From NCBI GenBank assembly GCA_965242865.1, contig CBDETK010000013.1:4224001-4288000 (forward strand): a DNA stretch of 64,000 bases, in the 5' to 3' direction. The translations under genes and the position numbers were made by a program. Under the pieces are notes generated by a model. It ran no database searches and was not told the DNA's origin. It was given only the letters and a program-made list of their open reading frames with translations. Positions within the stretch are counted from its first letter, which is position 1. Each line of letters begins with the position of its first letter. Shown here in pieces: positions 16,196 to 47,823 of this stretch. Origin of the DNA: Candidatus Latescibacterota bacterium. GTDB lineage: Bacteria; Latescibacterota; UBA2968; UBA8231.

Positions 16196-16208
16196 TGCTC
16201 TTTGACAA
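16196..16208 (+). promoter_or_regulatory. boxA in the 16S-23S spacer
   Basis: TGCTCTTTGACAA, immediately before the 5' arm of the 23S processing stem. Confidence 0.8.
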
Positions 16209-16325: not shown

Positions 16326-19349
<3,024 letters not shown>

Positions 19350-19428
19350 ATTATTGTCGCAGCAGTACTGGAGTTTTGCATCGCTTTTGGTGTGGGCCTG
19401 TATTCGGTTGTTGAAGAGAATTTGAGTT

Positions 19429-19545
19429 TTCCGGTGGTCATAGCGGAGGGGAAACACCTCTTCCCATTCCGAACAGAGCCGTTAAGCCCTCTTGCGCCGA
19501 TGGTACTGCTGGGGTCGCCTAGTGGGAGAGTAGGACGCCGCCGGA
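19429..19545 (+). rRNA. rrf: 5S ribosomal RNA
   Basis: TCCGGTGG...CCGCCGGA terminal stem, CCCATTCCGAAC, GCCGATGGTACT and GGGAGAGTAGG. Confidence 0.97.
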
Positions 19546-19560
19546 TTTTTTGTTGTGTTG

Positions 19561-29157: not shown

Positions 29158-31130
29158 AGCCGGTCTCGGTCTTGTGGCAGGTGGGTTGGCTCGTCTCGGC
29201 GGCGTGGACAGCGGTCGATGCCCAGCAGTACTCGCTCAACTTCAGCCGGTCCAGCAGCCGAACCTCTTGGAACCACCGCTTGCCGAGCTGGAACTACTCG
29301 ACGCCCGTGCGTTTTTCAGCGGTCGGGGACTCGACTTCCAAACTGACGATTACCGCATCGGCGAACATGGGGTTTACCCTCGACGACCGCAGCGGCGGCA
29401 AGAGTTGGCAGGACAATGCCTCGGGCCGAACTTCGATCAACTATCCCATTCTCGGGCCAAAGGCCACCATCAGCCTCGGCGCCTCCATGAGTACGCGCAA
29501 CGTGACGCTCCAGAAGCAGAGGACGCGCAGCCAGTCCTTTAACTTTGGGTTTAGGTCCAAGCCGTTGAGCAGCGGCCCGTTCAAGAGCCTGAGCGCCAAC
29601 CTAACCCCGAGCCTAATCTCCGCCACCCGCGCCACCCGCGCCAATCTCGACAGCACCATCCGGGAAACCGGAATTCGCTACAATGCTTCGCTGAGGGTTT
29701 CACCCGACATCGAGATTGCCGGCAAAAAACTGAGCAACTCGATTTCGCTGAGCAAAACGGACGACACGCTCGAGCACAACAAAAATCGCAGCGATCGACT
29801 GAGCGGCAACGTGAGCTATACCTTTCCCGGGGACATACGCATCGGCCTGAGCATGTCCGAGAATCGCTCGCAGCGCGGCCTCCCGCGCCGCGTCATCAGC
29901 GAGGAGGTGGTCGGGGAAACCGCGTTGCGCGATACCGTAGTCAGTGCCGAGTTATCGCAAACGCGCGGCACCAGCCTATCCTCCAACGTGGAGTTCGACC
30001 TAGGGCGATTCAAGATCAAAAACCGCGCCTCTTACAGTCAGAACGAGCAGACCAACACGGCCAACGCGGCCCAAGACTTAAACAACCGCTTCTTCGGCAA
30101 GGACCGCCTCAGCGAGAACTTTAGCTGGGACGCATCCCTTTCGGGCAAGTTGGTCGAGAAGCTGGTCCTCACCGCCAACGTGCGCTTCAAAGGCAGCGAC
30201 GTGCGCCGGCTGGCGGTGCGGGTGCTCGACACCAGCCGCTGCGCCAGCGAGTTCACGCGCTCGGCGGACGGAACGTGCCGCGATCCAACCTCGGACCTGA
30301 CCGACCGCAACCTCTTTCTCAACGGCTCGCTCAACTGGCCCCTATCCGATGCCCACTCCCTGCGGCTGACGACCTTTGGCGATATCAAACGCTCGGAAAA
30401 CCCAGGGCGCCCCGATCAGGACCGCGACACCTTTAACCACAGCATTTCCCTCAGCTACAACGGCACCCTGCGCTCGGGAACCAAGGTGCGCGTCGATCTC
30501 AAAAACAGCTTTTTGCACCGCGTGAACCTGCACGCCACCCGCGCCGGGAACAACTCGCGCAACCGCGACCTCTCGCTCAATATCGGCACCAATTACGAGC
30601 GCTTGGGGGCGTCCTTTTCGCACCGATTCAGCGTTTCCGCCAAGCGCACTATTTTCGATTTCGACCGCCAGGTCAATCGCCGCGAGTCGTCGCGCAAAAG
30701 CAAAATCCGCCGCGGCTGGAGCATGTCGCACACGCTCCAGCGCAAGATCGCGGCCGCCCTTTCGCTCAACGGCCGCTACGAATACTCGGCCGACGATGAC
30801 GGCACCTTGATTTTGGAAAACGGAGCTCAGATCGTCGAAGAGGAAAACGCCCGCTACACCCTCCGCTTCGGCATGACCTACTCGCCCAGTGCCTCCTACT
30901 CGGCCGGCGCGAGCTACACCTACAAGCTGGCCCGCCAGTGGGATTACGACTACTCCGCGCTCGACCAGCCGCGCTCCCTCAACCGCCGCAATAGGCACCG
31001 GACCCTGTCGGCGAACTTCAACTACAACCCGGTCGGCAGCAACAACAAGCTCAACCTCCGCGGCAGCCGCAATCACCAGCGCAGCGGCACGTTTGACAGC
31101 TTCACGGTGACCTATACGCGCTCGCTGTAA
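29154..31130 (+). CDS. Uncharacterised exported protein, probable large outer-membrane beta-barrel
   Basis: GTGA overlap with rsmA; signal peptide ending AVDA; Ser/Asn/Arg-rich with many alternating amphipathic strands; ends FTVTYTRSL. Confidence 0.7.
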   Translation: MKPVSVLWQVGWLVSAAWTAVDAQQYSLNFSRSSSRTSWNHRLPSWNYSTPVRFSAVGDSTSKLTITASANMGFTLDDRSGGKSWQDNASGRTSINYPILGPKATISLGASMSTRNVTLQKQRTRSQSFNFGFRSKPLSSGPFKSLSANLTPSLISATRATRANLDSTIRETGIRYNASLRVSPDIEIAGKKLSNSISLSKTDDTLEHNKNRSDRLSGNVSYTFPGDIRIGLSMSENRSQRGLPRRVISEEVVGETALRDTVVSAELSQTRGTSLSSNVEFDLGRFKIKNRASYSQNEQTNTANAAQDLNNRFFGKDRLSENFSWDASLSGKLVEKLVLTANVRFKGSDVRRLAVRVLDTSRCASEFTRSADGTCRDPTSDLTDRNLFLNGSLNWPLSDAHSLRLTTFGDIKRSENPGRPDQDRDTFNHSISLSYNGTLRSGTKVRVDLKNSFLHRVNLHATRAGNNSRNRDLSLNIGTNYERLGASFSHRFSVSAKRTIFDFDRQVNRRESSRKSKIRRGWSMSHTLQRKIAAALSLNGRYEYSADDDGTLILENGAQIVEEENARYTLRFGMTYSPSASYSAGASYTYKLARQWDYDYSALDQPRSLNRRNRHRTLSANFNYNPVGSNNKLNLRGSRNHQRSGTFDSFTVTYTRSL

Positions 31131-33990: not shown

Positions 33991-34407
33991 GTGTCCTGTG
34001 CAGACACCCTCCAGTGGGAGAGCCTCCCCCTGCGCCGGGAGAAGCCAGCCAAGTCCATGCTGTTGGTCGCGCTCATCGTCGCTTCGGCCGCGGCCGCGGC
34101 CATTGGGTTTGAGCATTGGTTTTACGGGCTATTTTCTTTCGGAGCATTGACCGCCTCCCTGTCGCGCTATTTCTTTCCCACGCGCTACGTGCTCAACGGC
34201 GAAGGGGTTCACAGCGAACACCTCGGCCTCAAACGACGCCGGTTTTGGGGGGAATTTCGCCGGGCCGACGAACAGCGGGACGGCATTTTTTTGCGGCCGT
34301 CGGTCCGCCCGGGTCGGCTCGATTCCTTTCGCGGCGTTTTTTTGCGCTTCGATCAAAACCGCGCCGAAGTTGCGCGGTTCGTCCGGTGCCATGTTCCGAA
34401 TCAATAG
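33991..34407 (+). CDS. Small membrane protein (2 TM plus a short beta-rich cytoplasmic domain), unknown function
   Basis: Fills the gap between coupled neighbours; two hydrophobic helices followed by FFPTRY...W..F...LDSFRG. Confidence 0.75.
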   Translation: MSCADTLQWESLPLRREKPAKSMLLVALIVASAAAAAIGFEHWFYGLFSFGALTASLSRYFFPTRYVLNGEGVHSEHLGLKRRRFWGEFRRADEQRDGIFLRPSVRPGRLDSFRGVFLRFDQNRAEVARFVRCHVPNQ

Positions 34408-34729
34408 CTTAAAAGCCCAGTGGCGGCACGCTTTTGCCCTCGAAGACCCAGCGGCGGGTTGGTCTGAGGACGAGCGGGCACTCGTCGAGCGGCTGGCCGA
34501 GTTTATAGTGAGTCGCCGCTTGGGCGCGGCCGCGACCATGGCGTTGGAGGCCGGTCGCCCGCTCAACTTTTTGGGCAGCCAAGCCTTGGTTTTCTTGGCC
34601 CCGTTTGCCACGCTAATTTTTTCGCCCACCGAGTACCAGCACTTTACGCGCATGTTGGAGCGCCGCGAGTGCATAGACTTGCTCGCCGAGGCCATTGCCC
34701 AGCGCGACAGCCAAAAGCCAAAAGCATGA
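34391..34729 (+). CDS. Small helical membrane-associated protein, unknown function
   Basis: Overlaps the upstream ORF and has an ATGA overlap with the next gene; LEAGRPLNFLGSQALVFLAPF hydrophobic segment. Confidence 0.75.
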   Translation: MFRINSLKAQWRHAFALEDPAAGWSEDERALVERLAEFIVSRRLGAAATMALEAGRPLNFLGSQALVFLAPFATLIFSPTEYQHFTRMLERRECIDLLAEAIAQRDSQKPKA

Positions 34730-36507
34730 ATGATCTCAACGTAGTTATCGCCACGGACTGCGGCAGTACCACCACCAAGGCGATCCTCATCGAAAAGAAG
34801 GACGGAGGGTATCGCCAGACCTTTCGCGGCGAGGCCCCCACCACAGTTGAGGCCCCCTTTGAGGACGTCACCCGGGGGGTGCTCAACGCCATTCAAGAGG
34901 TCGAGGAGCTTTCCGGGCGGCAGATCCTCGCGGGCGAGCGGATTATCGCGCCGGCCAACGGCGATGTCGGGGCCGATGTGTACATCTCGACGAGCAGCGC
35001 GGGCGGCGGGTTGCAGATGGTGGTGGCCGGCGTGGTGCTGGCGATGACCGGCGAGAGCGCGCAGCGCTGTGCCTTGGGCGCTGGGGCCATCGTCATGGAC
35101 GCGCTCGCCGCCAACGACGGCCGCTTGCCGCACGAAAAAATAGAGCGCATCCGTCAGTTGCGCCCCGACATGGTGCTGCTGTCGGGCGGCACGGATGGCG
35201 GCACGGTCAGCCACGTGGTTGAATTGGCCGAATTCATCCGCGCGGCCGACCCCAAGCCTCGCTTTGGCGCGGGCTTTAAGCTGCCGGTCATTTTTGCTGG
35301 CAACAAAGACGCGCGCGAGGAGGTTGAAAAGGCGCTGGGGGGGAAGGTGGCCCTGACCGTGACCGAGAATATCCGCCCGGTGCTCGAAGAGGAAAATCTG
35401 GCCCCGGCGCGGCACGTCATTCACGATCTCTTCCTCGAACACGTCATGGCGCAGGCCCCGGGCTACCGCAAGCTGATGGGCTGGACCGGTGCGCCGATTA
35501 GGCCGACGCCCGAGGCCGTAGGCCAGCTCATGCAGACCATTGCCCGCCAGCAGGAAATCAACGTCGTCGGCGTAGATATTGGCGGGGCGACGACCGATGT
35601 GTTCAGCGTCTTTGAGGGCGCGTTCAACCGCACGGTCAGCGCCAACCTCGGCATGTCCTATAGCGTCTCCAACGTGCTGGCCGAGGCCGGCCTCGACCCA
35701 ATCATGCGCTGGGTTCCTTTTGACATTGAGGAGGCCGACCTCCGCGACCGGATTAAAAACAAGATGATCCGGCCGACGACCATCCCCCAGCTCATGCAGG
35801 AGCTGCAAGTCGAGCAAGCCATTGCCCGCGAGGCCCTGCGCTTGGCCTTTGACCAGCACCGGGCGTTGGCGGTGGGATTGAAGGGGGTGCAGAGCAAGCG
35901 CACGCTGGCCGAGGTCTTTGAGCAGGGGGCCACCGGCGAGAGCTTAGTCGAGATGATGACGCTGGACCTGCTAGTCGGCAGCGGCGGCGTGCTCTCCCAC
36001 GCGCCCCGCCGGGCGCAGAGTTGCGCCATGCTCATAGATGCCTTTCAGCCCGAAGGCGTCACCCGCTTGGCAGTCGATAGCATCTTTATGATGCCGCACT
36101 TGGGGGTGCTCGCGACCGTGGACGAGCGGGCCGCGACCGAGGTTTTTGAGCGCGATTGCCTGATCTACTTGGGCACTTGTGTGGCCCCTGTGGGCGCGGG
36201 CAAGGCCGGCGAGGTCTGCCTCCAATACGAAATAGCCCAGCCCAGCGGCAGTCGCACTGGCCAGTTAGAGGTCGGCCAGCTCCAGCGGGTGCCCTTGGCC
36301 GCCGGAGAGGAGGCCGAAGTAGCCCTCCAGCCGGCCCGGCATTGGGATGTGGGGGCCGGCCCGGGGCACGCGCTCCATGCGCGGGTGCGCGGCGGGGTCG
36401 TAGGGCTCGTGTTGGATGGTCGCGGCCGCCCCATCCAGATGGCGACCGACCGCGACCGCTGGCGTCAGGTAAGCGACTGGCAGCGGGCGTTAAACCTATA
36501 CGAGTAG
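34726..36507 (+). CDS. GlmL/MutL (glutamate mutase L)-family ASKHA-fold ATPase with C-terminal extension
   Basis: Phosphate-1 DCGSTTTK, SSAGGGL, LLSGGTDGG, FAGN, ENIRP, PTP, phosphate-2 DIGGATTDV, RTV...LGM and adenosine GSGGVL motifs. No glutamate mutase subunits in the window. Confidence 0.85.
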   Translation: MNDLNVVIATDCGSTTTKAILIEKKDGGYRQTFRGEAPTTVEAPFEDVTRGVLNAIQEVEELSGRQILAGERIIAPANGDVGADVYISTSSAGGGLQMVVAGVVLAMTGESAQRCALGAGAIVMDALAANDGRLPHEKIERIRQLRPDMVLLSGGTDGGTVSHVVELAEFIRAADPKPRFGAGFKLPVIFAGNKDAREEVEKALGGKVALTVTENIRPVLEEENLAPARHVIHDLFLEHVMAQAPGYRKLMGWTGAPIRPTPEAVGQLMQTIARQQEINVVGVDIGGATTDVFSVFEGAFNRTVSANLGMSYSVSNVLAEAGLDPIMRWVPFDIEEADLRDRIKNKMIRPTTIPQLMQELQVEQAIAREALRLAFDQHRALAVGLKGVQSKRTLAEVFEQGATGESLVEMMTLDLLVGSGGVLSHAPRRAQSCAMLIDAFQPEGVTRLAVDSIFMMPHLGVLATVDERAATEVFERDCLIYLGTCVAPVGAGKAGEVCLQYEIAQPSGSRTGQLEVGQLQRVPLAAGEEAEVALQPARHWDVGAGPGHALHARVRGGVVGLVLDGRGRPIQMATDRDRWRQVSDWQRALNLYE

Positions 36508-36510
36508 CTC

Positions 36511-37626
36511 ATGGCCCACGCTTATACCCCGGGACTGCGCGTGACCCAACGCGCCGCCATCTACAAAGAGCGGCGGTTGCCCCTCCAAGGCGAAGTGGTC
36601 GTCGAGCGCGGCCAAGCCGTGCGCCGCGACCAAGTGGTGGCTCGCACCGAGCTGCCGGGCGAGGTGGCGACGCTCAACTTGGTCAACCGCTTGGGCATCG
36701 CGCCGGGCGAACTCGCCGGCTACATGCTCAAAAAAGAAGGCGACCGAGTCCAAGCCGGCGAGCCGCTCGCCGCGACGAGGCCGTTTATTCGGTGGTTCAA
36801 GACCGTAATTGAATCCCCGGTCAGCGGCACCGTCGAAAGCATTTCGCCGGTTACGGGGCAGGTGCTGTTGCGCCAAGCGCCTAAGCCGGTCGAAGTGCTG
36901 GCGTACGTCGATGGGGTCGTAGCCGAGGTTTTTGCCGACGAGGGGGTGCGCGTCGCCGCGCAAGGCGCGTACATACAGGGCATTTTCGGGGTGGGGGGGG
37001 AGTGCTGGGGTGCGCTGCACTTGGCGGTGGATGCCCCGGACGCCCGCGTCGGGCCGCTGGGCCCCGAAGTGGCGGGCAAGATCGCAGTGGTCGGCAGCCT
37101 GATTGGCGCGGAGACCGTAGAGCAGGCCCGGCAGGCTGGGGCCGTGGGGCTGATTGGCGGCGGCCTGCGCGACCGCGACCTCCGCGACCTGCTCGGGCGC
37201 GATTTGGGCGTGGCCATCACCGGGACCGAGCAAATCGGCCTGACCGTGGTGGCGACCGAGGGCTTTGGCCGCATCGCCATGGCCCGCAAGACTTTTGATA
37301 TTCTCCAAGCCTGCGCTGGCATGGATGCGTCGATGGCCGGCGCGACCCAAATCCGCGCCGGCGTGTTGCGGCCGGAAATCATCATTCCCACCGCCGCTGA
37401 CAACGGAGAAGAAGAGGGCCGGCCGGGCGCGGGCGGGTTGCAGGTGGGCGATTTGTTGCGCGTGATTCGGATGCCCTACTTTGGCCGGATCGGCCGCGTC
37501 AAGGACTTGCCGACCGAGTTGTGCGAGGTGGAGTCCGGGGCGCGGGTGCGGGTGTTGGCCGTAGAGTTTGAAGACGGGGAGCAGGCGGTAGTGCCCCGGG
37601 CAAATGTGGAGCTGATCGAGGGATAA
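36511..37626 (+). CDS. Uncharacterised soluble protein with repeated barrel-sandwich-hybrid motifs, an alpha/beta core and a C-terminal KOW/SH3-like domain
   Basis: VERGQAV...VVA, KKEGDRVQAGEPLA and SPVSGTVESI motifs; ATEGFG; LQVGDLLRVIRMPYFGRIGRV. Confidence 0.85.
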   Translation: MAHAYTPGLRVTQRAAIYKERRLPLQGEVVVERGQAVRRDQVVARTELPGEVATLNLVNRLGIAPGELAGYMLKKEGDRVQAGEPLAATRPFIRWFKTVIESPVSGTVESISPVTGQVLLRQAPKPVEVLAYVDGVVAEVFADEGVRVAAQGAYIQGIFGVGGECWGALHLAVDAPDARVGPLGPEVAGKIAVVGSLIGAETVEQARQAGAVGLIGGGLRDRDLRDLLGRDLGVAITGTEQIGLTVVATEGFGRIAMARKTFDILQACAGMDASMAGATQIRAGVLRPEIIIPTAADNGEEEGRPGAGGLQVGDLLRVIRMPYFGRIGRVKDLPTELCEVESGARVRVLAVEFEDGEQAVVPRANVELIEG

Positions 37627-37630
37627 AGGC

Positions 37631-38878
37631 ATGAGAGCAAAAAGCTGGCTCGCTGCATTCGCGTTGGCGTGGCCGTTGGCGAGTGCGGCAGAAAATGCGG
37701 ACCAAGGGCTCGGCACCTTGCTGGTCCATCCTAAGCCGCCGATTGAGGTCCAAGCCTTTGACACCCCCAACGACGACGGGGGCAGCATTACCCTAACTTG
37801 GCCGCGCGACCGCCAGATCAGCGAACATGCGCTGTATCAGGTCGCCATCGCGGACTCGCCCCGCGGGCCTTTTCGCGTCGCGGCCGAGGTCGCGGCCTCG
37901 GGGAATTTGATGTCCGCAGCACCGGCGCTCTTTGGGCACGGGGCCGAGCTGGAAAATTACCATTATGTCAACATCGAGGAATTTGCCGGCGCGGGCGGCA
38001 AGTCTCCGCTAGAAGACGGCAAAACGTATTACTTCCACGTTGATGTGCGGTCCGCCGGGGGCGCGATCCGCGGCAAAGTGATCGTCCACGCCGAGTCGGC
38101 CGGCAATTTTTTCAATCGCGCCAAGGTCAACAATCTGGTGTTGTGCGTCCTGTTCTCAGGGCTTATCATGGGCTACATCGGCATTGCGCGGCGGCGCACG
38201 CTCAAAATTCGCCGCATCGCCGGGCTAGAGGCGCTCGACGAGGCCCTCGGGCGGGCAACCGAGATGGGCAAGCCAGTGCTCTTCATCCACGGCCTGCGCG
38301 ACATGAGCCAAATTTCGACCATTGCCGCAGTCAACATCTTGGGGCGGGTCGCGCGACGCACGGCCGAATACGACACCGCGCTGCGGGTGGTGGCGCCCGA
38401 TCCAGTGGTGATGTCCGTGAGTCAGGAGACCGTGAAAGCCTCGTACATCGAGGCGGGCCGGCCCGATGCCTTCAACCCGGATCACGTCTTCATCGCCGGG
38501 GCCGAGCAGTTTAGCTATGCGGCGGCCGTCGAGGGCATTATGCTCCGCGACCGGCCAGCGGCCCACATTATGATGGGGTATTTCTACGCTGAGTCCCTGC
38601 TGTTGGCCGAAACGGGTTCGACGACCGGGGCGATTCAGATCGCCGGCACCGATGCCTTCACTCAGTTGCCGTTCTTCATTACTACCTGCGACTACACCCT
38701 GCTCGGCGAAGAACTCTACGCCGCCAGTGCCTATCTATCCGGCGAGCCGCGGATGCTGGGCACCCTCAAGGGCCAAGACGCCGGCAAGGCCCTTATTTTG
38801 CTCGTCTTGGCGGTGGGCACGGTCTTGGCAACGGCCGGGCTGTTCCCCCAGCTAACGTACTTCTTCACTCCGCATTGA
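37631..38878 (+). CDS. Membrane protein: signal peptide, FnIII-like domain, TM, DUF6754-like domain, C-terminal TM
   Basis: DTPNDDGGSITLTW FnIII-like start; IRRIAGLEALDEALGRATEMGKPV; QLPFF...CDYTLLGEELYAASAYL. Family name is from recall, not a search. Confidence 0.8.
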   Translation: MRAKSWLAAFALAWPLASAAENADQGLGTLLVHPKPPIEVQAFDTPNDDGGSITLTWPRDRQISEHALYQVAIADSPRGPFRVAAEVAASGNLMSAAPALFGHGAELENYHYVNIEEFAGAGGKSPLEDGKTYYFHVDVRSAGGAIRGKVIVHAESAGNFFNRAKVNNLVLCVLFSGLIMGYIGIARRRTLKIRRIAGLEALDEALGRATEMGKPVLFIHGLRDMSQISTIAAVNILGRVARRTAEYDTALRVVAPDPVVMSVSQETVKASYIEAGRPDAFNPDHVFIAGAEQFSYAAAVEGIMLRDRPAAHIMMGYFYAESLLLAETGSTTGAIQIAGTDAFTQLPFFITTCDYTLLGEELYAASAYLSGEPRMLGTLKGQDAGKALILLVLAVGTVLATAGLFPQLTYFFTPH

Positions 38879-38887
38879 GGAGGGGCC

Positions 38888-39547
38888 ATGCTGTTTTTTA
38901 GCCGCACCTTGCCGCTGGCCGTCGCCTTGGTCTTTGGCCTGCTGGGCATTGCCATCTACTACATACCGCACAGCCATGCCCAGGGCTTTGAGCGCGAGAT
39001 GGCAAAGTGGGTGCGCATCATCGCCGCGTTTGCCTACCTGCTCGGGCTGTACAGCCTGCTCAACCTGCATTGGCAGCGGATCCGCCAGCACGTCGTCGGT
39101 TGGGGCTACAGCTTGGTCGCGATCGCCAGCTTTGTGCTGATGATGGTTTTCGTCGTGTACAACGATGGCCGCGGCCCGTTTGCCGCCCAAGCCGAATCCG
39201 GGGGCTACAACTGGCTCTTCCAATACGTCCACCTGCCCTGTTCGGGCACCATGTTTTCGATCTTGGCCTTTTTCATCGCTTCGGCGGCCTACCGGACCTT
39301 TCGCGCCCGTACGCCCGAGGCCGCGCTGTTGCTGGTCGCGGCGGTGATCGTCATGCTGGGCCGGGTGCCCATTGGCCGGGAGATCTCGGAGTTTTTTCCG
39401 CTGGCGACCGACTGGCTGATGAGCGTACCGAATTTAGCGGCCAAGCGCGGCATTCTGCTCGGGGTGTCGCTCGGGGCCATCGCGACCTCGTTGCGGATCA
39501 TCTTCGGCATTGAGCGTTCGTATTTGGGCGGTGGAGGCGACGAGTGA
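38888..39547 (+). CDS. Uncharacterised integral membrane protein (about 6 TM)
   Basis: SD GAGGAGG; about six hydrophobic segments; FSILAFFIASAAYRTFRAR and AKRGILLG..LG......RIIFGIER motifs. Confidence 0.85.
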   Translation: MLFFSRTLPLAVALVFGLLGIAIYYIPHSHAQGFEREMAKWVRIIAAFAYLLGLYSLLNLHWQRIRQHVVGWGYSLVAIASFVLMMVFVVYNDGRGPFAAQAESGGYNWLFQYVHLPCSGTMFSILAFFIASAAYRTFRARTPEAALLLVAAVIVMLGRVPIGREISEFFPLATDWLMSVPNLAAKRGILLGVSLGAIATSLRIIFGIERSYLGGGGDE

Positions 39548-40362
39548 TCCAGATCGACCGCCGCATTCTCTTTGCCTTGGTGTTTTTAGGAGTGGTCGGG
39601 CCGCTCTTGATTGGGCTCCACCTGCCGGTCACCCCGAGCAAGCAGGTGCGAGCGGCGTACGACCAGTTTGAGCAGCTCGTCCCCGGGCAGGTCGTCTTAG
39701 TCTCCTTCTCCTACGGCGCCAGCACGGCCCCGGAGATGCAGCCCATGGCGCGGGCGATTTTGCGCCATGCGTTTGGCCGCGGGCTCAAGGTCGTCGCCAT
39801 CTGCCTGTGGCCCGAAGCGACCGGCCTCGCCCAAGCGGTGCTCGAGGAGATGGCGGCCGAATTCGATTTGACTTACGGCGTGGAGTACGCCTTTCTGGGC
39901 TACAAGCCCGGGACCTTTAGCGTCATCCTCAACATGGGACACGACGTCCACGGCGCATTTCCGCAGGACAATTGGGGCGCAGGTGTCGGCGAGTTGGAGT
40001 TGATGCGGAGGGTGCGCTCGTTGCGCGATTTCGACCTCGTCTTCGACCTAGGGGCCGGGGATTCGATTGAGTTTTGGTGGATCCCCTTCGGGCAGGAAAA
40101 GTACGGCTTTCCCTTTGCCGCGGGCTGCACCGCGGTCATGGCCCCGGATCTCTACCCATTTCTCGGCTCGGGCCAGCTCGTGGGCTTGCTCGGCGGCTTG
40201 GCTGGCGCGGCCGAATACGAGGTCCTGATTGGCCGCCGCGACGAGGCCAACAAGAGCATGTCCTCCCAGTCGGTCACCCATCTGGTCATTGTCGCCTTTG
40301 TGATTTTTGGCAATATCGCGTACTTCGCCGGTCGGCGGGGCCGCTCGCCGCAGGAGCGCTGA
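39544..40362 (+). CDS. Uncharacterised protein with N- and C-terminal TM helices flanking an alpha/beta domain
   Basis: GTGA overlap; DRRILF-TM, central alpha/beta domain, YPFLGSGQLVGLLGGLAGAAEYE, final TM followed by a basic tail. Confidence 0.85.
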   Translation: MIQIDRRILFALVFLGVVGPLLIGLHLPVTPSKQVRAAYDQFEQLVPGQVVLVSFSYGASTAPEMQPMARAILRHAFGRGLKVVAICLWPEATGLAQAVLEEMAAEFDLTYGVEYAFLGYKPGTFSVILNMGHDVHGAFPQDNWGAGVGELELMRRVRSLRDFDLVFDLGAGDSIEFWWIPFGQEKYGFPFAAGCTAVMAPDLYPFLGSGQLVGLLGGLAGAAEYEVLIGRRDEANKSMSSQSVTHLVIVAFVIFGNIAYFAGRRGRSPQER

Positions 40363-40365
40363 GTC

Positions 40366-41079
40366 GTGCGCGATACGTACGTCTTGTTGGGTTTTGTGCT
40401 GCTGTTTGCGGCCGGCAACATCGCCTTGGTGGCCAGCGGGACCTTGGCGGCCGACTGGACGGGGTTCGGCGTCATGGTCGCGGCCGGCATGACCTTGGCG
40501 CTCTACAGCTTCCTCTACAAGGACAACCCGCTTTTCAAGTTTGCCGAGCACGTCTTCGTCGGCGTGGCCGCGGCGTACATCTTCGGCCAGTACTGGTATC
40601 CGACGATTTACGGCGAGCTCATCGCCGAATGGACCGACCCGGGGAAAGGGGAGACGCCCAATTGGTGGCTGTTGGCCCCGACCGTGCTGGGGCTGTTGAT
40701 GCTGACGCGCTTTTCGCTGCGCTTGGGCTGGCTCAGCCGCTATGCGTTTGCATTTTTCGTCGGCCTCGGGGCCGGCTGGACGATCCCCCGCTATATTTCC
40801 TCCTTCATTCTCGCCCAAATCGAGCCTACATTGCGGCCGCTGACTTGGAGCGTAGAAGGGCTCAATTTGCTGATCGTCCTCGTGGGGGTCGTCGGGGTGT
40901 TGGTTTACTTTTTCTTTTCCGTTGAGCACACCAGCGCGGCGGGCCATATCTCCAAGGTGGGGATCTGGTTTTTGATGGTCTCGTTTGGTGCTTCGTTTGG
41001 TTACACCATTATGGCGAGGGTCTCGCTGTTGATCGGGCGCGTGACCTTTCTCTTAGAGGACTGGCTGCACCTGATGTAA
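40366..41079 (+). CDS. Uncharacterised integral membrane protein (about 7 TM)
   Basis: Hydrophobic throughout; YSFLYKDNPLFKFAEH.FVG, YFFFS and MVSFGASFGYTIMARVSLLIGR motifs. Confidence 0.85.
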   Translation: MRDTYVLLGFVLLFAAGNIALVASGTLAADWTGFGVMVAAGMTLALYSFLYKDNPLFKFAEHVFVGVAAAYIFGQYWYPTIYGELIAEWTDPGKGETPNWWLLAPTVLGLLMLTRFSLRLGWLSRYAFAFFVGLGAGWTIPRYISSFILAQIEPTLRPLTWSVEGLNLLIVLVGVVGVLVYFFFSVEHTSAAGHISKVGIWFLMVSFGASFGYTIMARVSLLIGRVTFLLEDWLHLM

Positions 41080-41112: not shown

Positions 41113-44100
41113 ATGACCAAGTTTGCAGGTGTTTTTTGCGTCCTGCTCGCGCTGAGTGTGGCGCCGGCCGAGGCCAGTACCGGCGGCAAAATCGCCGGGG
41201 TCGTCAAGGATGCCACCACCGGCGATGGGTTGCCCCAAGCCAATGTCGCGGTGGTAGGGACCAAGCTGGGGACCACGGCCGACGAAAAGGGCCGCTTCTT
41301 CATCCTCAACGTGCCGGCCGGCACCTACGCCCTCAAGGCCACGTATATCGGCTATGCGGATTATACCGTCGAAGATGTGCGGGTTTCTACTGACCTGACT
41401 ACGAAGCTCGACATCGACCTGACTTCTGCGGACATCCAAGTCGAGGAAGTCGTCATCCGGGCCGAGCGGCCGATCATCGACAAAAACGCCACCAATGCGG
41501 TGCGGATTGTCGGAGCCGAAGACCTAGAGATTCTGCCGTTTAGAGGCGTCAGCCAAGTCTTGTCCCTGCAAGCGGGCGTGGTTGAAGACGAGGGGGCGTT
41601 GCACATCCGCGGCTCGCGCTCCGACGAAATTGGCTATTACGTCGATGGAGCCAGCGTCCGCAACATAATCACCGGCAGCTTTGCGGTCGGCCTAATTGAC
41701 GAAGCCCTAGAGGAAGTTCAGCTACAGGCTGGCGGCTTCAACGCCGAGTACGGCGGAGCCAACGCCGGCATCGTCTTGCAAGAGCTCCGCACCGGGGGCC
41801 ACGATTGGGACTTTACGATCGTGGCCGAGTCGGACAATTTCACTTCCGACTTTGAGCAGCGGTTCGGCACGTACTCTTATGGCTATTCCAACCAAGTGAT
41901 CACGGCTGGCGGCCCGGTCGCGGGCAACCAAAACATCCGCGCCTTTGTCGCCGGTCAGCGCAGGAGCGTGGACTATCGCCCGACCTACTGGTCGGGGTTT
42001 GAGTTTGAGAATTTGGTGGATACGGGCAATCGCCAAGGGCGCGTCCATTGGGCCGAAGACGAGGAAGGCAATCCCATCCCAGACGAGGTCGAGCGGCTGG
42101 AGGTCAAGCCGGGCAACATCCCGCACACCGGCAGATCGCTCCTCGACTTCAACGGCACCCTGCACTTCAACTACAATCCCATCCTGTTGCGGGTCACGGG
42201 CCTGCATTCCATCGAGGACCGCGAACTCAACATCAACCCCGTCAAAAACATCCTCAACCAAGAACGCCTCAACGAGCGGACGCTTTCTTCTAGCTTGGTC
42301 AACGTAAAGGCCATTCACTTGCTCGACCCGAGCCTGTTCTACGAAATGAATGTCAGTTTCTACAATCAGGGGCGGGAGAGTTTTGACGGGGTGTTCAAAG
42401 AGCGTTGGTGGGTGTACAACGACAGCGTGGCCGTGCAGCGCGCCCTCGAAGGCGGCCCGGAGTACACCCCCTATACGGCCAACGGCTCGATCCCCGAGCC
42501 GTACGACCTGAGCGGGTTTCCGTTCAATCGCCCGGGCTCGCCGACCAATTCTGCAACGGGCAACAGCACGGGTGCTTGGTACGACAAGGAACAGGACCGC
42601 TATTGGGGCTTGGCTGGCAGCATTACCAAGCAGACCGCGGTCCATCAACTCAAGGCCGGCTTCGACTACCAGAGGTGGACGTCGCGCCGCCACGCCATCT
42701 TCAACGGGTCCATTCGCTCGGGCATCGCCGCGACCTACCCCAAGCTAGACGCAGTGTACCAGCGGTACTACCGCGGCGAGCTCGCCGAGGGCGCGATCCT
42801 CAACGCGCTGATCGAAACCGCCGATACCCTGTCCGAAGGCGAGGGGAGCCTCGACGACCTCAGGCGGTTTTTGCGCCGCAGTTCGGGCGACTTTTTTGGC
42901 TACGACGAGTTTGGCCGCTCCATTGAGTCGTCGGGCGACCCCCTGCAAAACCCGCGCGAGCCCGTGGTCGGCTCGGCTTTTGTCCAAGACAAGATCGAAT
43001 ACAACGATCTGATCATCAACGCCGGGTTGCGCTTGGATTACTTTGATGCGGCGAGTTGGCGCTTTGTCGATCAATCGGCGCCGGTGATTGACAAACAGGA
43101 GCGCACCTTGGTGATCGAAAACTCGGCCGGCACCTATATGGAAAAGACGCCGGCCTATACGGAGATCAGCCCGCGCTTGGGCTTTTCGTTCCCAGTGTCG
43201 GATATAACGGTCTTTCACGTGCAGTACGGGCGCTTCTCCCAGATGCCGCGGATGCGCGATATGTTCACCGGCGGGGCGCGGCTGGCAGTGGAGTTGGGGG
43301 GGCAAAACTTCATCCTCACGCCCACGGCCTTTGACATTGAGCCGGTGCGCACGACCCAGTACGAAATTGGCTTTGAGCGTCAGTTTGCGGATTTTGCCTC
43401 GTTTGACGTGACGAGTTTTTACCGCGACATCAAGGGCCAGCTCCAAATCCGGCGGCAAGAGGTGTCGGGCAACGCAGTGGAGGCCGGCTCGTTTACGTAC
43501 TTGCAAAACGGCGACTTCGCCACGACCAAGGGCCTTGAGTTCCAGTTTAAGGTGCGGCGGATCAACCGCCTGCGGGCCGAGTTGAACTACACCCTGTCCG
43601 ACGCGCGCGGCACCGGTTCGACCCTGACCTCGGCGCAATCGGGCGCGGAGAACGACACGGACGTGCCGACGATCATCTCGCCGCTCGACTTCAACCAGAC
43701 GCACCGCGGCGCCCTGTTTTTGGACTATCGCTTTGCCGACAACGAGGAGAACTCGCTCGTCCGCCGCTTGGGGGCCAACCTGCTGGCGCGTTTTGCCAGC
43801 GGCTACAACTTCACGCTGGTAGATGGTTCAATCGGCCAGCGCGGGCCGGAAGAAGGCGGCATTCTCGCCAGCGATGACTCGCGCTCGCGCAAGCCGGTTG
43901 AATCCATCAATCGCTCTACGACGCCTTGGACCTTCCGGGTCGACCTGCGGATCGACAAGGGCTTTTCGCTCTACGGGGTCAATGCCCAGATTTACGCGTA
44001 CGTGCAAAACCTGTTCAACCGCAAGAACGTGATTAACGTGTACGGCCGGACCGGCAGCGACAAGGACGACGGCTTTTTGACGAATCCAGACCTGAGCCAG

Positions 44101-44250
44101 CAGATCGTCGAAGCCAGCGGCGGCTTGCAGTACCAGCAGCTCTACGAGGCGATCAACTTGCTCAACCGCCAGCACTACTGGTCCACCGAAGGCGGCGACA
44201 TTTACGACGCCCCGCGGCAGCTCCGCTTCGGGCTACAATTCGACTTCTAG
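41113..44250 (+). CDS. TonB-dependent receptor with N-terminal carboxypeptidase-regulatory-like domain
   Basis: Signal peptide; G.I.G.V.D..TG..LP.ANV; plug LQAGVV....HIRGSR..E..YYVDG; QDKIEY, NAGLR.DYF, SPRLG.SFP; ends LRFGLQFDF. Confidence 0.92.
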   Translation: MTKFAGVFCVLLALSVAPAEASTGGKIAGVVKDATTGDGLPQANVAVVGTKLGTTADEKGRFFILNVPAGTYALKATYIGYADYTVEDVRVSTDLTTKLDIDLTSADIQVEEVVIRAERPIIDKNATNAVRIVGAEDLEILPFRGVSQVLSLQAGVVEDEGALHIRGSRSDEIGYYVDGASVRNIITGSFAVGLIDEALEEVQLQAGGFNAEYGGANAGIVLQELRTGGHDWDFTIVAESDNFTSDFEQRFGTYSYGYSNQVITAGGPVAGNQNIRAFVAGQRRSVDYRPTYWSGFEFENLVDTGNRQGRVHWAEDEEGNPIPDEVERLEVKPGNIPHTGRSLLDFNGTLHFNYNPILLRVTGLHSIEDRELNINPVKNILNQERLNERTLSSSLVNVKAIHLLDPSLFYEMNVSFYNQGRESFDGVFKERWWVYNDSVAVQRALEGGPEYTPYTANGSIPEPYDLSGFPFNRPGSPTNSATGNSTGAWYDKEQDRYWGLAGSITKQTAVHQLKAGFDYQRWTSRRHAIFNGSIRSGIAATYPKLDAVYQRYYRGELAEGAILNALIETADTLSEGEGSLDDLRRFLRRSSGDFFGYDEFGRSIESSGDPLQNPREPVVGSAFVQDKIEYNDLIINAGLRLDYFDAASWRFVDQSAPVIDKQERTLVIENSAGTYMEKTPAYTEISPRLGFSFPVSDITVFHVQYGRFSQMPRMRDMFTGGARLAVELGGQNFILTPTAFDIEPVRTTQYEIGFERQFADFASFDVTSFYRDIKGQLQIRRQEVSGNAVEAGSFTYLQNGDFATTKGLEFQFKVRRINRLRAELNYTLSDARGTGSTLTSAQSGAENDTDVPTIISPLDFNQTHRGALFLDYRFADNEENSLVRRLGANLLARFASGYNFTLVDGSIGQRGPEEGGILASDDSRSRKPVESINRSTTPWTFRVDLRIDKGFSLYGVNAQIYAYVQNLFNRKNVINVYGRTGSDKDDGFLTNPDLSQQIVEASGGLQYQQLYEAINLLNRQHYWSTEGGDIYDAPRQLRFGLQFDF

Positions 44251-44279
44251 CTAGCCGCTTAAAAGCGAGGAAGCACACC

Positions 44280-47200
44280 ATGCGAAAACTCATTTTTGGA
44301 ATGATAGCGGCGGGGCTGGTGGTCGGCGCGGCCGAGGCGCGCGAGCCGTTTTACGGCCGGGCGGCCAAAGCCCTCCAAGAGAAGGAGGACAAGGACAAGG
44401 TCTCGACCGAGCGGACGCTGCTCAACATCAACAACATGGCCATGTGGATCAAGAGCGATGGTGCGTCGGCTCACAACCCGATCACCGGCGGCGCGGGCGT
44501 GACGTTTCCGCGCTCGACCGACCAAGTCATCTTTCAGGACGGCCTTATTTGGGGCGGGCGGGTCATGGACGGCAATCCACAGGAGGTGCGCGTCGGCGGC
44601 CAGACCTATGCCATTGGCACGGTCCCGGGCGTCATTGAGTCGAAAGGCGTGGCTCAAGACCGCGCTGCGGCGCGCCTGTACCGAATTCGCCGCGACTGGG
44701 CGACCGCGGATTTGCGGCTCGACGCCTCCGAGATCTTCAACAAGGGCCTGAGCGAAGTCTCCGCGGCTAATGAGGATTCCGTGCGCGCCCGATACGAGCG
44801 CGACTGGCTGGAGTGGCCGGCCGAGTTGGGTGCTCCCTTTTACGACAACGACGGAGACGGGCAGTACGACCCCGCGGTGGACGAGCCGGGGTTGGCCAAT
44901 GCCGATCAAGTGATCTGGTTCGCGGTCAACGATTTGGACCCAGGGGCTGTCGCTGGCCTCTACGGCGCCCTGCCGATTGGCATGGAGACGCAGGTGACGC
45001 TGTGGGGGTACGCCCGCACGGACGCGCTGGGCGACGCGATCTTTAAGAAGTACAAGGTCATTTACAAGGGCACCGAGAGTACGCCGGACACGGCGCGCGT
45101 TGAGGACATGTACTTCGCTCAGTGGTCCGATCCGGACTTGGGCGACTTTGGCGACGACTTTGCCGGGGCCGATGTCGATTTGAGCCTCGGGTACGTGTAC
45201 AACTCAATTGACGACGACTCCCATTACGTGGACTTTGGGCTGGCACCGCCGGCCGCGGGCTACGACTTTTTGCAAGGTCCGATTGTGCCGGTGCATGTCC
45301 TTGACGCGGAGGGGAATGTCGCCGTGGATGAAGAAGGCAACCCACTGCTCGACGAGAGCTCGGTGGCGATCTTCAACGACGGGCTGAGGCCCGGGTACAA
45401 AAATTTGCCGATGACTGCGTTTGTGTACTTTGCGGCGGGGTCGTCAGTTGACGACCCGGACTTGCGAGCGTACGACGGAACCTTGCAGTGGTACAACCTG
45501 CTGCAAGGCTTCAAGCCGCAGGCCAACATCGACAAGCCCGTGCCCTACACCAATCCGCTGACCAACGAGGACACCAAGTTCACGCTTGCCGGCGACCCAA
45601 CGCGGGCCACGGGCTGGAACGACGGAGTCCCCTTGCCGGCCGGCGACCGGCGCATCGTAATGGCGACCGGCCCGTTTGAGATGGCGTTGGGCGACACGCA
45701 AGAAGTAGTGGTCGCTCTGCTGGGCGGCATTTCTACCGACCGCCTGCGCAGCGTCTCCAAGCTCAAGTTCACGGACCAGTTCGTGCAGGACGCGTACAAC
45801 AGCTTCTTTGAGGTTCCCAAGCCGCCGGCTCCGCCCAATGTTCGCGTCGTTGAGCTGGATCAGACGATCGTCTTGGACTGGGGCTGGGACGACGAGTCGA
45901 TAAAGGCCGCGGAAGGCGAGGGCTCCCCCGGCTTTGATTTTGAAGGCTACAACGTCTATCAGTTGCCCTCGGCCGAAGCCACGCTTTCCCAAGGGGTCAA
46001 GGTGGCGACCTTTGATATTGAAAACGGCGTGACCGCGATCTTGGGCATTGACCTAGACGACGAGTCGGGTGTGGTGCTCGACGTGCCTCTACAGATCGGT
46101 GCCGACTTTGGGCTCAAGCGCAATATCAAGATCACCCAAGACCGCATCCGCAGCGGTCCGTTGGTCAACGGCCAGCGCTACTACTTTGCGGTGACGGCCT
46201 ACAACCGCGCCACGGCCGGAGGGGCCACCACCACGCTGGAAAGTGCGCCGCAAAACTTGATCTGCGTACCGCAGGAGCCGCCGCCGGGCACTCGCTATTT
46301 CAGCAAGGCCGCCGCCGCGATAGTCGCCGAGCACATTGCCGGTGGCAGCGATGGTGGGGTCGTGGTCACTGTAGTTGATCCGACGAGAACCACCGGGCAC
46401 GACTACGCGATCGAATACGCTGCTGACGCCGACGGCAACACGGTGTGGAATCTGATCGACAAGACTAGCGGTCAGACTCTGTTGGCCGATCAGACCGATC
46501 AGGCTGGCAAGGTCCTCTATGTTGAGGCTGCCGGCATTGAGGTCGCGGTTTCTGGTCCGCCGGCTGGCATGAAGAGTTGGGCCGGGCCGGCCATGCCGTT
46601 TGAGGCTTGGAAGGCTTCGGCTGAAGCGGCCGACTTGACGGGCGATGGCCAGATCGACGCCGCCGATTTCGCACAGGCCGTTGATCACGCCAGCGACACG
46701 CGCTGGTTCACTTGGGCTGGCGGCTCCAATAGCTGGGGTGCCGAAGGCTTCCAAGGCGCGATGACCGGCGATCCCAACCGCCAGTGGTTCGCGCCCACCA
46801 CGGTGACGCCCGATCAATTGCGCACGGTGGAACTGCGCTTTACAGATGTCATAGAAGAAGATGGCGAAGACCAGTACAAGCCGGTTGACCTCAACAACGA
46901 GAACGTCTCCTATGCCTATCGCTACTTGCGGGGGGCTGGAGCGGACCCGCCGGCACTCGCCACCCTGACGACCACGACGAACCCGTGGGACTTTGGCCAG
47001 TACATCATCAATACCGAAGGCCCGGGCGTGTACGTCTATCAAGACCGGCGGCCGATCGCGCTGTCGGCTTGGGATATTGAGAGCGATCCGCCGCGCCGCC
47101 TCGAAGTGGCCTTCCTCGAAAACAACCAACCCGGCGGCTTGGTCAACGGCGCGTACGGACCGCCTTGGTACGATGTGGTGAGCAATATCGCTGGGGCCGG

Positions 47201-47801
47201 ACCACGCGAGTGGCTGTTCATCTTTGATTTGGACTACACGGACCCCAACCAAGGCGAGAACAGCGACATCTTGTTGCGGAACGGTTTGATTCACGATGGA
47301 GGCGAAAACGAGGAATACCTGCCCTTCATGTGGATCATCTTTTCTGAGCGGCGGCGCGAAGACGACTTTCCCTCCAACGGCGACTCCTTCCTGCTCGTCG
47401 CCAACCACGTCAACACCCCAGCCGACCGCTTCGCGTTTACGATCTTAGGGTCGGAAAGCGGCGACGCCTTTCTAGCCGAGGACATCAAAAAGATCAACGT
47501 TTTCCCCAATCCCTACTTAGGGGTCAACACGGCGGAGACCAGCCGCTTTAGCCACTTTGTGACCTTCAGCCACCTGCCGCCCAAGGCGAATATCCGCATC
47601 TTCGACCTGAGCGGAACGCTGGTGCGGACGATTGAGAAAGACGATCCGTCGCAGTTCACGCGCTGGGACCTGCAAAACCACAACGAACTGCCGGTAGCCA
47701 GCGGCATGTACATCGCCCATATCGAGCTGCCGGGGACCGGCATGACCCGCGTCCTCAAGCTGGCCATCATTCAAGAGCAGCAGTTCTTGGAGAATTTCTA
47801 G
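44280..47801 (+). CDS. Large secreted acidic protein with FnIII-like region and C-terminal T9SS type-A / FlgD-Ig-like sorting domain
   Basis: Signal peptide; FEGYNVYQ and YYFAVTAY FnIII strands; C-terminal VFPNPY...IRIFDLSG.LVRTI...WDL.N.....VASGMY...KLAII. Confidence 0.85.
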   Translation: MRKLIFGMIAAGLVVGAAEAREPFYGRAAKALQEKEDKDKVSTERTLLNINNMAMWIKSDGASAHNPITGGAGVTFPRSTDQVIFQDGLIWGGRVMDGNPQEVRVGGQTYAIGTVPGVIESKGVAQDRAAARLYRIRRDWATADLRLDASEIFNKGLSEVSAANEDSVRARYERDWLEWPAELGAPFYDNDGDGQYDPAVDEPGLANADQVIWFAVNDLDPGAVAGLYGALPIGMETQVTLWGYARTDALGDAIFKKYKVIYKGTESTPDTARVEDMYFAQWSDPDLGDFGDDFAGADVDLSLGYVYNSIDDDSHYVDFGLAPPAAGYDFLQGPIVPVHVLDAEGNVAVDEEGNPLLDESSVAIFNDGLRPGYKNLPMTAFVYFAAGSSVDDPDLRAYDGTLQWYNLLQGFKPQANIDKPVPYTNPLTNEDTKFTLAGDPTRATGWNDGVPLPAGDRRIVMATGPFEMALGDTQEVVVALLGGISTDRLRSVSKLKFTDQFVQDAYNSFFEVPKPPAPPNVRVVELDQTIVLDWGWDDESIKAAEGEGSPGFDFEGYNVYQLPSAEATLSQGVKVATFDIENGVTAILGIDLDDESGVVLDVPLQIGADFGLKRNIKITQDRIRSGPLVNGQRYYFAVTAYNRATAGGATTTLESAPQNLICVPQEPPPGTRYFSKAAAAIVAEHIAGGSDGGVVVTVVDPTRTTGHDYAIEYAADADGNTVWNLIDKTSGQTLLADQTDQAGKVLYVEAAGIEVAVSGPPAGMKSWAGPAMPFEAWKASAEAADLTGDGQIDAADFAQAVDHASDTRWFTWAGGSNSWGAEGFQGAMTGDPNRQWFAPTTVTPDQLRTVELRFTDVIEEDGEDQYKPVDLNNENVSYAYRYLRGAGADPPALATLTTTTNPWDFGQYIINTEGPGVYVYQDRRPIALSAWDIESDPPRRLEVAFLENNQPGGLVNGAYGPPWYDVVSNIAGAGPREWLFIFDLDYTDPNQGENSDILLRNGLIHDGGENEEYLPFMWIIFSERRREDDFPSNGDSFLLVANHVNTPADRFAFTILGSESGDAFLAEDIKKINVFPNPYLGVNTAETSRFSHFVTFSHLPPKANIRIFDLSGTLVRTIEKDDPSQFTRWDLQNHNELPVASGMYIAHIELPGTGMTRVLKLAIIQEQQFLENF

Positions 47802-47823
47802 GGGAGCAACAGGAGGCCATTCC

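Follow-up and report, generated by a model that had tools for sequence, protein, structure and literature searches.

Closest described systems

In Table 1 of the mini-review PMC3962082, the small membrane proteins YdgE/YdgF and YdgQ/YdgL are listed as hetero-dimers of antiparallel paralogues. The two proteins compared in our study, a member of Pfam DUF6754 (PF20539) and a protein here named p272, resemble these pairs in being encoded by neighbouring genes, in having an equal number of transmembrane (TM) helices and in showing K+R biases (tails minus domain-side flanks) of opposite sign, with family means of +4.19 for p272 and -4.94 for DUF6754. However, the Ydg pairs have recognisable sequence homology and are almost wholly embedded in the membrane, whereas homology between DUF6754 and p272 is undetectable, each of the two has no more than two TM helices, which flank a soluble domain of about 175 to 200 residues, and the gene of a third protein, m219, lies between them.

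Regulatory or cofactor domains of Rossmann-like fold on membrane transport systems, namely the KTN/RCK domains of K+ transporters and domain III of transhydrogenase, are also among the closest systems. A further Rossmann-like protein, MT0777 of Methanothermobacter (PDB 1kjn), which we take to be the protein called MTH777, is soluble and shares 10% sequence identity with each of the two domains considered here. A search of the PDB with the p272 profile at E ≤ 10 (best E 1.3) did not bring up 1kjn, and a full-text search found no literature on MTH777.

The locus and its gene products

The window, that is, the whole stretch of 64,000 nt that was analysed, belongs to Candidatus Latescibacterota bacterium (GCA_965242865.1, contig CBDETK010000013.1, positions 4,224,001 to 4,288,000, forward strand). 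The preliminary description of this DNA had located open reading frames (ORFs) at 37631 and 39544, and both are present there, in a group of genes that are closely packed or overlapping (Table 1).

TABLE 1 Features of the module locus, in window coordinates
Feature	Coordinates	Strand	Remarks
Two small ORFs (138 aa, 119 aa)	33991..34729	+	One hydrophobic segment each
GlmL/MutL-like actin-fold ATPase	34669..36507	+	PF13941, E 2.3e-126
BSH371, soluble, N-terminal barrel-sandwich-hybrid domain	36511..37626	+	Weak Pfam matches only
DUF6754 protein, 415 aa	37631..38878	+	PF20539
Predicted Sec-type signal peptide, DUF6754 residues 1-20	37631..37690	+	Read from sequence
FN3-like beta-sandwich, predicted periplasmic, DUF6754 residues 41-155	37751..38095	+	
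DUF6754 TM helix 1, residues 163-188	38117..38194	+	Hydropathy peak 168-186; model helix 163-188
Rossmann-like alpha/beta domain, six-stranded, predicted cytoplasmic, DUF6754 residues 197-370	38219..38740	+	
DUF6754 C-terminal TM helix, residues 373-402	38747..38836	+	Hydropathy peak 387-405; model helix 373-402
m219, membrane protein, six hydropathy-predicted TM segments	38888..39547	+	4-base overlap with p272 start
p272, 272 aa	39544..40362	+	Without Pfam or NCBIfam family
p272 TM helix 1, residues 6-23	39559..39612	+	Model helix 6-23; hydropathy peak 8-26
Rossmann-like alpha/beta domain, six-stranded, predicted periplasmic, p272 residues 33-229	39640..40230	+	
p272 C-terminal TM helix, residues 234-266	40243..40341	+	Model helix; then Arg-rich tail
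m237, multi-TM membrane protein, fourth module gene	40366..41079	+	Adjoins p272

The product of ORF 37631 is a clear member of DUF6754 (residues 158-404, E 1.9e-111, 371.7 bits against a cut-off of 27) and the sole match of PF20539 in the whole genome. The family has no described function, and a full-text search for DUF6754 or PF20539 found no literature. Over 66 sequences, reaching down to 38% identity, 35 columns of the family are invariant, a degree of conservation that suggests an important role in the membrane. p272 falls outside DUF6754 and matched no Pfam family at E ≤ 0.01 and no NCBIfam family, yet its own family is large, the profile gathering 4477 clusters at 50% identity (E ≤ 0.001). 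Its partner is a domain of undescribed function, and in Latescibacterota the two are always accompanied by two polytopic membrane proteins.

As regards the other members, m219 gave no Pfam or NCBIfam family above any cut-off and no significant PDB match by profile search, and m237 likewise lacked a match in either family collection, while a profile search of PDB sequences with it uncovered no solved relative. When the profiles of the five module proteins were compared with the PDB, the only significant matches were those of the FN3-like DUF6754 N-terminus with 2uve_A (E 0.0015) and, weakly, of BSH371 with RraA (E 0.0056). In Pfam, BSH371 matched Biotin_lipoyl above the cut-off (E 7.1e-06, 26.2 bits against 22.1) and RnfC_N (E 1.4e-05, 25.5 bits against 25.6) and NQRA_N (E 0.0013, 19.3 bits against 25) below it. 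The NCBIfam GlmL models scored the upstream ATPase under their cut-offs; translation of this protein probably begins at ATG 34726, in an overlap with the stop codon of the ORF before it.

Predicted architecture of the DUF6754 protein and p272

Hydropathy and the AlphaFold2 models (pLDDT 88.6 for the DUF6754 protein; pLDDT 96.8 and pTM 0.92 for p272) give both proteins two TM helices around an alpha/beta domain. In the DUF6754 protein, a predicted signal peptide and an FN3-like sandwich precede the TM helix, the six-stranded alpha/beta domain and the second TM helix, while p272 consists of the last three elements only. The DUF6754 start shows basic residues, a hydrophobic core and then small residues, with a helix at 3-18 and then a linker of low confidence in the model, and the N-terminal beta-sandwich (residues about 31-160) superposes on FN3 domains. 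Not counting the DUF6754 signal peptide, the number of TM helices is two in each protein, and the order common to both models is TM, helix, six strand-helix units, TM. Furthermore, two solved Rossmann-like chains, 1kjn_B and 6zdz_A, can each be superposed on both alpha/beta domains, with the same ranges of the chain covered. A shared architecture of the two proteins is supported at the level of the predicted structures. A place among the NAD(P)-binding Rossmann or DHS-like domains (sirtuin, transhydrogenase dIII), which combine the fold with a nucleotide-binding loop after strand 1, would be tentative. Foldseek returned for p272 weak Rossmann-like matches only, 19 of them at E ≤ 0.001, with p272-length-normalised TM-scores of 0.19-0.36 among those listed; for the whole DUF6754 model, matches to the FN3 domain and multi-domain chains made up most of the list, which was uninformative on the alpha/beta domain. 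In the C-terminal TM helix of p272, His246 is near-invariant and Asn257 invariant.

Conservation of the four-gene module

The presence of both genes in one conserved module is supported by genome loci, by metagenome loci (found with a 10-sequence alignment) and by a sample of the phylum. The syntenic order DUF6754-m219-p272-m237 is held in 80 genome loci and in 40 of the 48 metagenome loci with all four genes. In particular, m219 adjoins p272 in 80/80 genome and 73/78 metagenome loci, and m237 does so in 80/80 and 75/78, respectively. Among 121 genomes of the phylum, p272 occurs in 96 and DUF6754 in 97, with both families in 96; the only genome having DUF6754 without p272 is 67% complete, and its DUF6754 gene lies at a contig end.

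It could be argued that the resemblance of the two proteins is coincidental and that they do not work together, and the lack of sequence similarity between them agrees with such an explanation. Nevertheless, gene order is kept down to about 40% identity, the families co-occur in 96/121 genomes and the whole four-gene module is tandemly duplicated at four metagenome loci (L119, L121, L132 and L154), which makes a coincidence very improbable.

The module does not always have the BSH and GlmL-like genes as partners. BSH371 lies upstream of DUF6754 in 75/80 genome loci and in 19 of the 27 metagenome loci with enough upstream DNA, and the GlmL-like ATPase gene is present in 69/80 genome loci. The small ORFs of 138 and 119 aa occur in 57 and 58 of the 80 genome loci, respectively, and the latter also in 11/78 metagenome loci.

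Membrane orientation

The preliminary description had assigned the two alpha/beta domains to opposite faces of the membrane on the basis of an RRR after TM helix 1 of the DUF6754 protein and, in p272, of a DRR before TM helix 1 and a GRRGR after the last TM helix. All of these motifs are present in the sequences: six K/R occur in the 15 residues after DUF6754 TM helix 1 and four among the last 10 residues of p272, whereas the D-R-R motif ahead of p272 TM helix 1 is conserved, with RR within the first 40 residues in 96/115 family members. Applied to the whole families, the positive-inside rule predicts a cytoplasmic DUF6754 domain (mean bias -4.94; negative in 64/66, zero in 2) and a p272 domain on the outside (mean +4.19; positive in 109/115, zero in 4, negative in 2). 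Since the biases are opposite and consistent across both families, the placement on opposite faces holds as a prediction, and an opposite orientation of the two subunits is supported in this sense. The signal-peptide-like start and the FN3-like domain ahead of TM helix 1 also count for the DUF6754 orientation, and a CARDB insert in the domain of one p272 relative (P0326, E 1.1e-06) counts for the outside placement of p272, as CARDB domains are usually extracytoplasmic.

Some observations point the other way, i.e., to both alpha/beta domains being cytoplasmic, or to the orientation of p272 being otherwise mispredicted, so that the outer face would lack a cap. The usual ligands of Rossmann-like domains are nucleotides, which are absent from the periplasm; the inserts in the domains of two p272 relatives, HEAT repeats in P0356 and DUF2795 in P0300, lean cytoplasmic or are ambiguous; and the window's own p272 has a bias of no more than +1, as its tails contain 6 K/R and its flanks 5. 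However, this arrangement would put two conserved Arg-rich tails outside in 109/115 members of the p272 family, and the conserved D-R-R in 96/115 and the CARDB insert also speak against it, so that we consider it unlikely and retain the outside placement of the p272 domain as the preferred prediction.

Sequence comparison of the two proteins

The likeness of the two proteins had originally been noticed by eye, as a series of matching segments. These segments are real and co-linear, starting at residues 199, 336, 357 and 379 of the 37631 protein and 35, 191, 215 and 239 of the 39544 protein, and they occupy corresponding structural elements (strand 1 and its preceding helix, strand 5 with its helix, strand 6 with its helix, and the C-terminal TM helix), but residue by residue they are no more alike than expected by chance. 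Without gaps, the four pairs reach BLOSUM62 scores of at best -6, 4, 10 and 15, with identities of 1/17, 3/14, 5/13 and 3/20, and global and local alignments of the whole regions stayed within the range of 500 shuffles (z -0.24, -0.93, 0.06 and -0.96). The top BLASTP match between DUF6754 and p272 covered 15 residues, was not co-linear and had an E value of 0.045. Moreover, in profile searches of the genome, p272 (E ≤ 1) and DUF6754 each found their own gene only, and against the module proteins at E ≤ 10, each profile found its own kind only.

The stronger statement, that the domains are remote paralogues, was not borne out: a lack of profile-profile similarity had been set beforehand as refuting it, and five hhalign runs, one of them with secondary structure, gave probabilities of 1.6%, 0.4%, 0.4%, 2.0% and 1.5%. 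Because the Rossmann-like sandwich is very common, identity of fold alone is no proof of common descent. Judged from these comparisons, what the proteins have in common would be their architecture and a very common fold, with common descent neither shown nor excluded.

It is possible to hypothesize, nonetheless, that the two are true remote paralogues, in which an ancestral TM-Rossmann-TM gene was duplicated, one copy was flipped by a shift of its K/R bias, on the pattern of antiparallel paralogue pairs, and the similarity decayed below detection. Such an origin would suit the same TM number, element order and strand count of the models, the structural neighbours in common over the same chain ranges, the K+R biases of opposite sign and the strict co-occurrence in one operon. 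In addition, among 10 family pairs compared with hhalign, DUF6754/p272 scored best, with residues 190-289 aligned on 26-119 (92 columns) co-linearly and in the register originally proposed; its P value of 0.025 is non-significant after 10 comparisons, and the probability is 2%, the other runs giving 0.4-1.6%. The pairwise scores equal to those of shuffled sequences and the restriction of each profile to its own gene and kind also weigh against it. Nor do language-model neighbours link either family to the other, those of p272 falling 30/30 in the unnamed set without Pfam families, consistent with a family of its own, and those of the DUF6754 alpha/beta domain including none usable outside PF20539. 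On balance, we regard remote paralogy as possible but doubtful. If the two were related, the inverted-topology principle would extend to subunits with large soluble domains.

A putative two-faced membrane complex

The reading that we favour, with a probability of about 0.6, is that the DUF6754 protein and p272 are different subunits of one conserved inner-membrane complex, with hairpins predicted to be oppositely inserted. The complex would be made by DUF6754, m219, p272 and m237, often with the cytoplasmic BSH protein and the GlmL-like actin-fold ATPase. The DUF6754 protein and p272 would each form a two-helix membrane hairpin with a six-stranded Rossmann-like domain between the helices. In the former, the FN3-like domain would lie outside and the Rossmann-like domain in the cytoplasm; in the latter, both Arg-rich ends would be cytoplasmic and the Rossmann-like domain would face outward. 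The polytopic m219 and m237 may build the core, within the membrane, of a machine that is transporter-like or relays signals, and on each face of it the hairpin subunits would put a ligand- or partner-binding alpha/beta domain, while the ATPase and the BSH protein may act at the cytoplasmic face. Similar alpha/beta domains held on opposite faces by a pair of hairpins would be an unusual design, and the predicted pair is something specific at which topology mapping and cryo-EM can be directed. Complex prediction for p272 with DUF6754 residues 160-415, m219 and m237 gave scores of 0.72, 0.75 and 0.72; since a control in which DUF6754 was replaced scored higher (0.81), the score is not specific to DUF6754 and speaks neither for nor against binding.

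A more elaborate model would see in the module an ancient duplicated two-gene unit (hairpin plus six-TM protein) with inverted halves, giving a hetero-tetramer of pseudo-two-fold symmetry, capped on either face by a Rossmann-like domain, the p272 cap being exported in a folded state via the D-R-R motif. We consider this model quite improbable, and we know of no described inverted-repeat architecture built from four separate genes with large soluble domains. Compared as inverted paralogues, m219 and m237 gave an hhalign probability of 0.5%. With regard to export, a loose Tat-like pattern (polar-RR-x-hydrophobic-hydrophobic) occurs in 66/115 members of the p272 family and TatC is encoded in the genome; the hydrophobic stretch of p272 TM helix 1 has the strong hydrophobicity of an ordinary TM helix.

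Longer relatives of p272

The 34 longer relatives examined with local profiles correspond to p272 with insertions or with an internal duplication (P0298), and none of them is a fusion of p272 to DUF6754, m219 or m237. Any Pfam match was found in only 4 of the 24 long variants scanned. The Atlas taxa listings for p272 relatives also indicate Chloroflexota and WOR-3.

Gene run and conservation of the module

The DUF6754 protein, p272 and the membrane proteins adjoining the latter, m219 and m237, form a four-gene module within a tight gene run, whose features are listed in the table. The GlmL-like ORF, in which the Pfam match starts at residue 26, is listed from GTG 34669, but its true start is probably ATG 34726, overlapping the stop codon of the preceding 119-aa ORF.

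Features of the window, with tblastn matches among 80 genome loci
Feature	Position	Strand	Description	Loci matched
16S rRNA	14454-16010	+	rRNA operon
tRNA	16108-16181	+	rRNA operon
23S rRNA	16326-19350	+	rRNA operon
5S rRNA	19430-19546	+	rRNA operon
698-aa ORF	29034-31130	+	no Pfam family at E<=0.001
Gene run	33991-41079	+	two small ORFs to m237
Two small ORFs		+	138 and 119 aa; first in run; no Pfam or NCBIfam family
GlmL/MutL-like		+	actin-fold ATPase; PF13941, E 2.3e-126	69/80
BSH371	36511-37626	+	371 aa, soluble; weak barrel-sandwich-hybrid matches	75/80
DUF6754 protein	37631-38878	+	415 aa; clear Pfam DUF6754 member, E 1.9e-111	79/80
m219	38888-39547	+	219 aa; six TM segments predicted by hydropathy; sub-threshold Pfam and NCBIfam matches only	80/80
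p272	39544-40362	+	272 aa; no family matched in Pfam or NCBIfam	80/80
D-R-R of p272	39556-39564	+	residues 5-7
m237	40366-41079	+	237 aa, multi-TM; no family matched in Pfam or NCBIfam	80/80
Downstream genes	41113-48852	+	TonB-dependent-receptor-like protein with CarboxypepD_reg domain, next after m237; 1173-aa ORF, no Pfam family; PorV-like protein

The 80 loci come mostly from Latescibacterota MAGs, and in only 31 of them is the module followed by the TonB-dependent-receptor-like gene. Among 78 distant metagenome loci, where p272 is about 37 to 46% identical to that of the window, 48 carry all four core genes, with the canonical order in 40 and tandem duplications or local permutations in the remaining 8. 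The whole set occurs twice in tandem in L119, L121, L132 and L154 (e.g., L154:939-7600), which singles out the four genes as the evolutionary unit. The second DUF6754 copy is shorter where seen (373 aa in L119, 302 aa in L132 and 298 aa in L154), and in L132 and L154 it almost lacks the region N-terminal to the DUF6754 domain. Furthermore, p272 was found in 96 and DUF6754 in 97 of 121 genomes sampled from the phylum, the two sets being identical except for one 67%-complete genome, with the DUF6754 gene at a contig end. Two genomes, G103 (C1:19998-21631) and G108 (C161:24963-26599), have two adjacent p272 copies beside a single DUF6754 gene.

The upstream gene BSH371 is a frequent but nonobligatory partner, since it precedes the module in 19 of the 27 metagenome loci whose upstream DNA is long enough to tell. 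A Memo-like protein of 415 to 472 aa (PF01875, E 1e-36 to 1e-40) is encoded just downstream of the m237 homologue in 10 of 23 long metagenome loci (L099, L113, L120, L124, L129, L138, L141, L142, L147 and L152; 66 of 137 flank ORFs scanned). The p272 profile matches 4477 clusters at 50% identity, and the Atlas neighbours of p272 list Chloroflexota, WOR-3 and Latescibacterota. A full-text search of one literature library found no mention of DUF6754 or PF20539.

Relationship between DUF6754 and p272

The preliminary description had aligned segments of the two proteins by eye. These are indeed co-linear, starting at residues 199, 336, 357 and 379 of DUF6754 and 35, 191, 215 and 239 of p272, but the identities amount to 1/17, 3/14, 5/13 and 3/20, and the BLOSUM62 global and local scores of the aligned regions lie within those of 500 shuffles (z of -0.24, -0.93, 0.06 and -0.96). 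At the residue level, the likeness is no greater than chance. BLASTP between the two proteins returned a sole match of 15 residues, off the co-linear register (E 0.045).

What stands of the likeness is the architecture. AlphaFold2 predicts both proteins with confidence. The p272 model (pLDDT 96.8, pTM 0.92) comprises a TM helix (6-23), a helix (33-43), six strand-helix units (strands 50-56, 82-87, 115-120, 165-170, 191-195 and 214-217) and a long helix (234-266). The DUF6754 model (pLDDT 88.6) begins with a helix (3-18), a beta-sandwich (41-155) and a TM helix (163-188), followed by a helix (197-212), six strand-helix units (strands 216-220, 251-255, 286-288, 311-315, 335-340 and 355-358) and a helix (373-402). 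The element order is identical in both, and the segments chosen by eye fall on equivalent elements. When each model was searched against about 48,000 PDB representatives, 6zdz_A, sirtuins, KTN/TrkA-N domains and halves of GT-B glycosyltransferases were matched by both; sequence searches returned no solved relative for DUF6754, p272, m219, m237 or BSH371. Conserved polar residues that may make functional or packing contacts are the near-invariant His246 and the invariant Asn257 in the last TM helix of p272 and the invariant Asp383 and Lys386 ahead of the last helix of DUF6754.

The profile comparisons speak against the remote paralogy that had been proposed: they show no profile-profile similarity, an outcome that the preliminary description itself had named as refuting it. 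With alignments of growing depth, hhalign gave probabilities of 1.6% (34 and 35 close homologues), 0.4% (77 and 78 sequences out of the 80 genome loci), 0.4% (66 DUF6754 sequences of 38 to 88% identity versus 115 p272 sequences of 32 to 85%), 2.0% (local alignments plus metagenome members) and 1.5% (the same with AlphaFold secondary structure). The 2.0% alignment (P 0.025; 92 co-linear columns, DUF6754 190-289 on p272 26-119) is the best among ten family pairs and in the register seen by eye, without being significant. Each profile matched only its own gene in the genome of the window and, at E<=10, only its own kind within the set of module proteins. The 30 language-model neighbours of p272 all fall in the unnamed (no-Pfam) set, which fits membership of the p272 family itself; for the DUF6754 domain, no usable neighbour was obtained with PF20539 excluded. 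Paralogy and pseudo-two-fold symmetry are unproven.

Among known systems, antiparallel paralogue pairs of small membrane proteins come closest in concept; YdgE/YdgF and YdgQ/YdgL are listed as such, with their charge biases, in the mini-review PMC3962082. DUF6754 and p272 share with such pairs the equal TM number, the opposite bias and the common operon, but sequence homology was not detected, and we therefore do not file them as an antiparallel paralogue pair, even though they may work like one.

Membrane orientation

The alpha/beta domain of DUF6754 is very probably cytoplasmic, as judged from the signal-peptide-like start, the FN3-like domain ahead of TM1 and the six K/R among the 15 residues that follow this helix. 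The K+R bias, scored across each family as two tails versus two domain-side flanks of 15 residues, averages -4.94 for DUF6754 (64 of 66 sequences negative, 2 zero) and +4.19 for p272 (109 of 115 positive, 4 zero, 2 negative). The opposite bias is therefore a family-wide property; the p272 of the window itself scores only +1. For the p272 domain, we rate the probability of a periplasmic location at about two in three.

Insertions in long p272 relatives (P0241-P0377) concentrate at two sites, one near residue 110 and the other in the stretch that links the domain to the last TM helix. Of 24 such relatives scanned with Pfam, 4 gave any match, and the inserted domains offer mixed hints on orientation: P0326 carries CARDB, a usually extracytoplasmic domain, while the HEAT repeats of P0356 and the DUF2795 of P0300 lean cytoplasmic or ambiguous. 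In P0298, the p272 domain is present twice. The D-R-R motif at the p272 N terminus, followed by hydrophobic residues, is conserved (RR in 96 of 115 members), and TatC is present in the genome; the motif may act as a signal anchor of the Tat type or else as a peptide on which a cytoplasmic partner docks.

Proposed arrangement

Sequences and models together predict the domain layouts, a common fold class, charge biases of opposite sign and the conserved module. The two domains probably lie on opposite faces of the membrane, and the proteins probably belong to a single complex. In the most likely arrangement, the four module proteins would form one inner-membrane complex, with m219 and m237 as the membrane core and DUF6754 and p272 as hairpin subunits that would put one Rossmann-like domain on each face, the inner face being the putative site of action of the cytoplasmic ATPase and the BSH protein. 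We suggest that this uncharacterised, widespread membrane system deserves an experimental look.

Elsewhere in the window, a complete rRNA operon (14454-19546) accounts for the G+C dip there.
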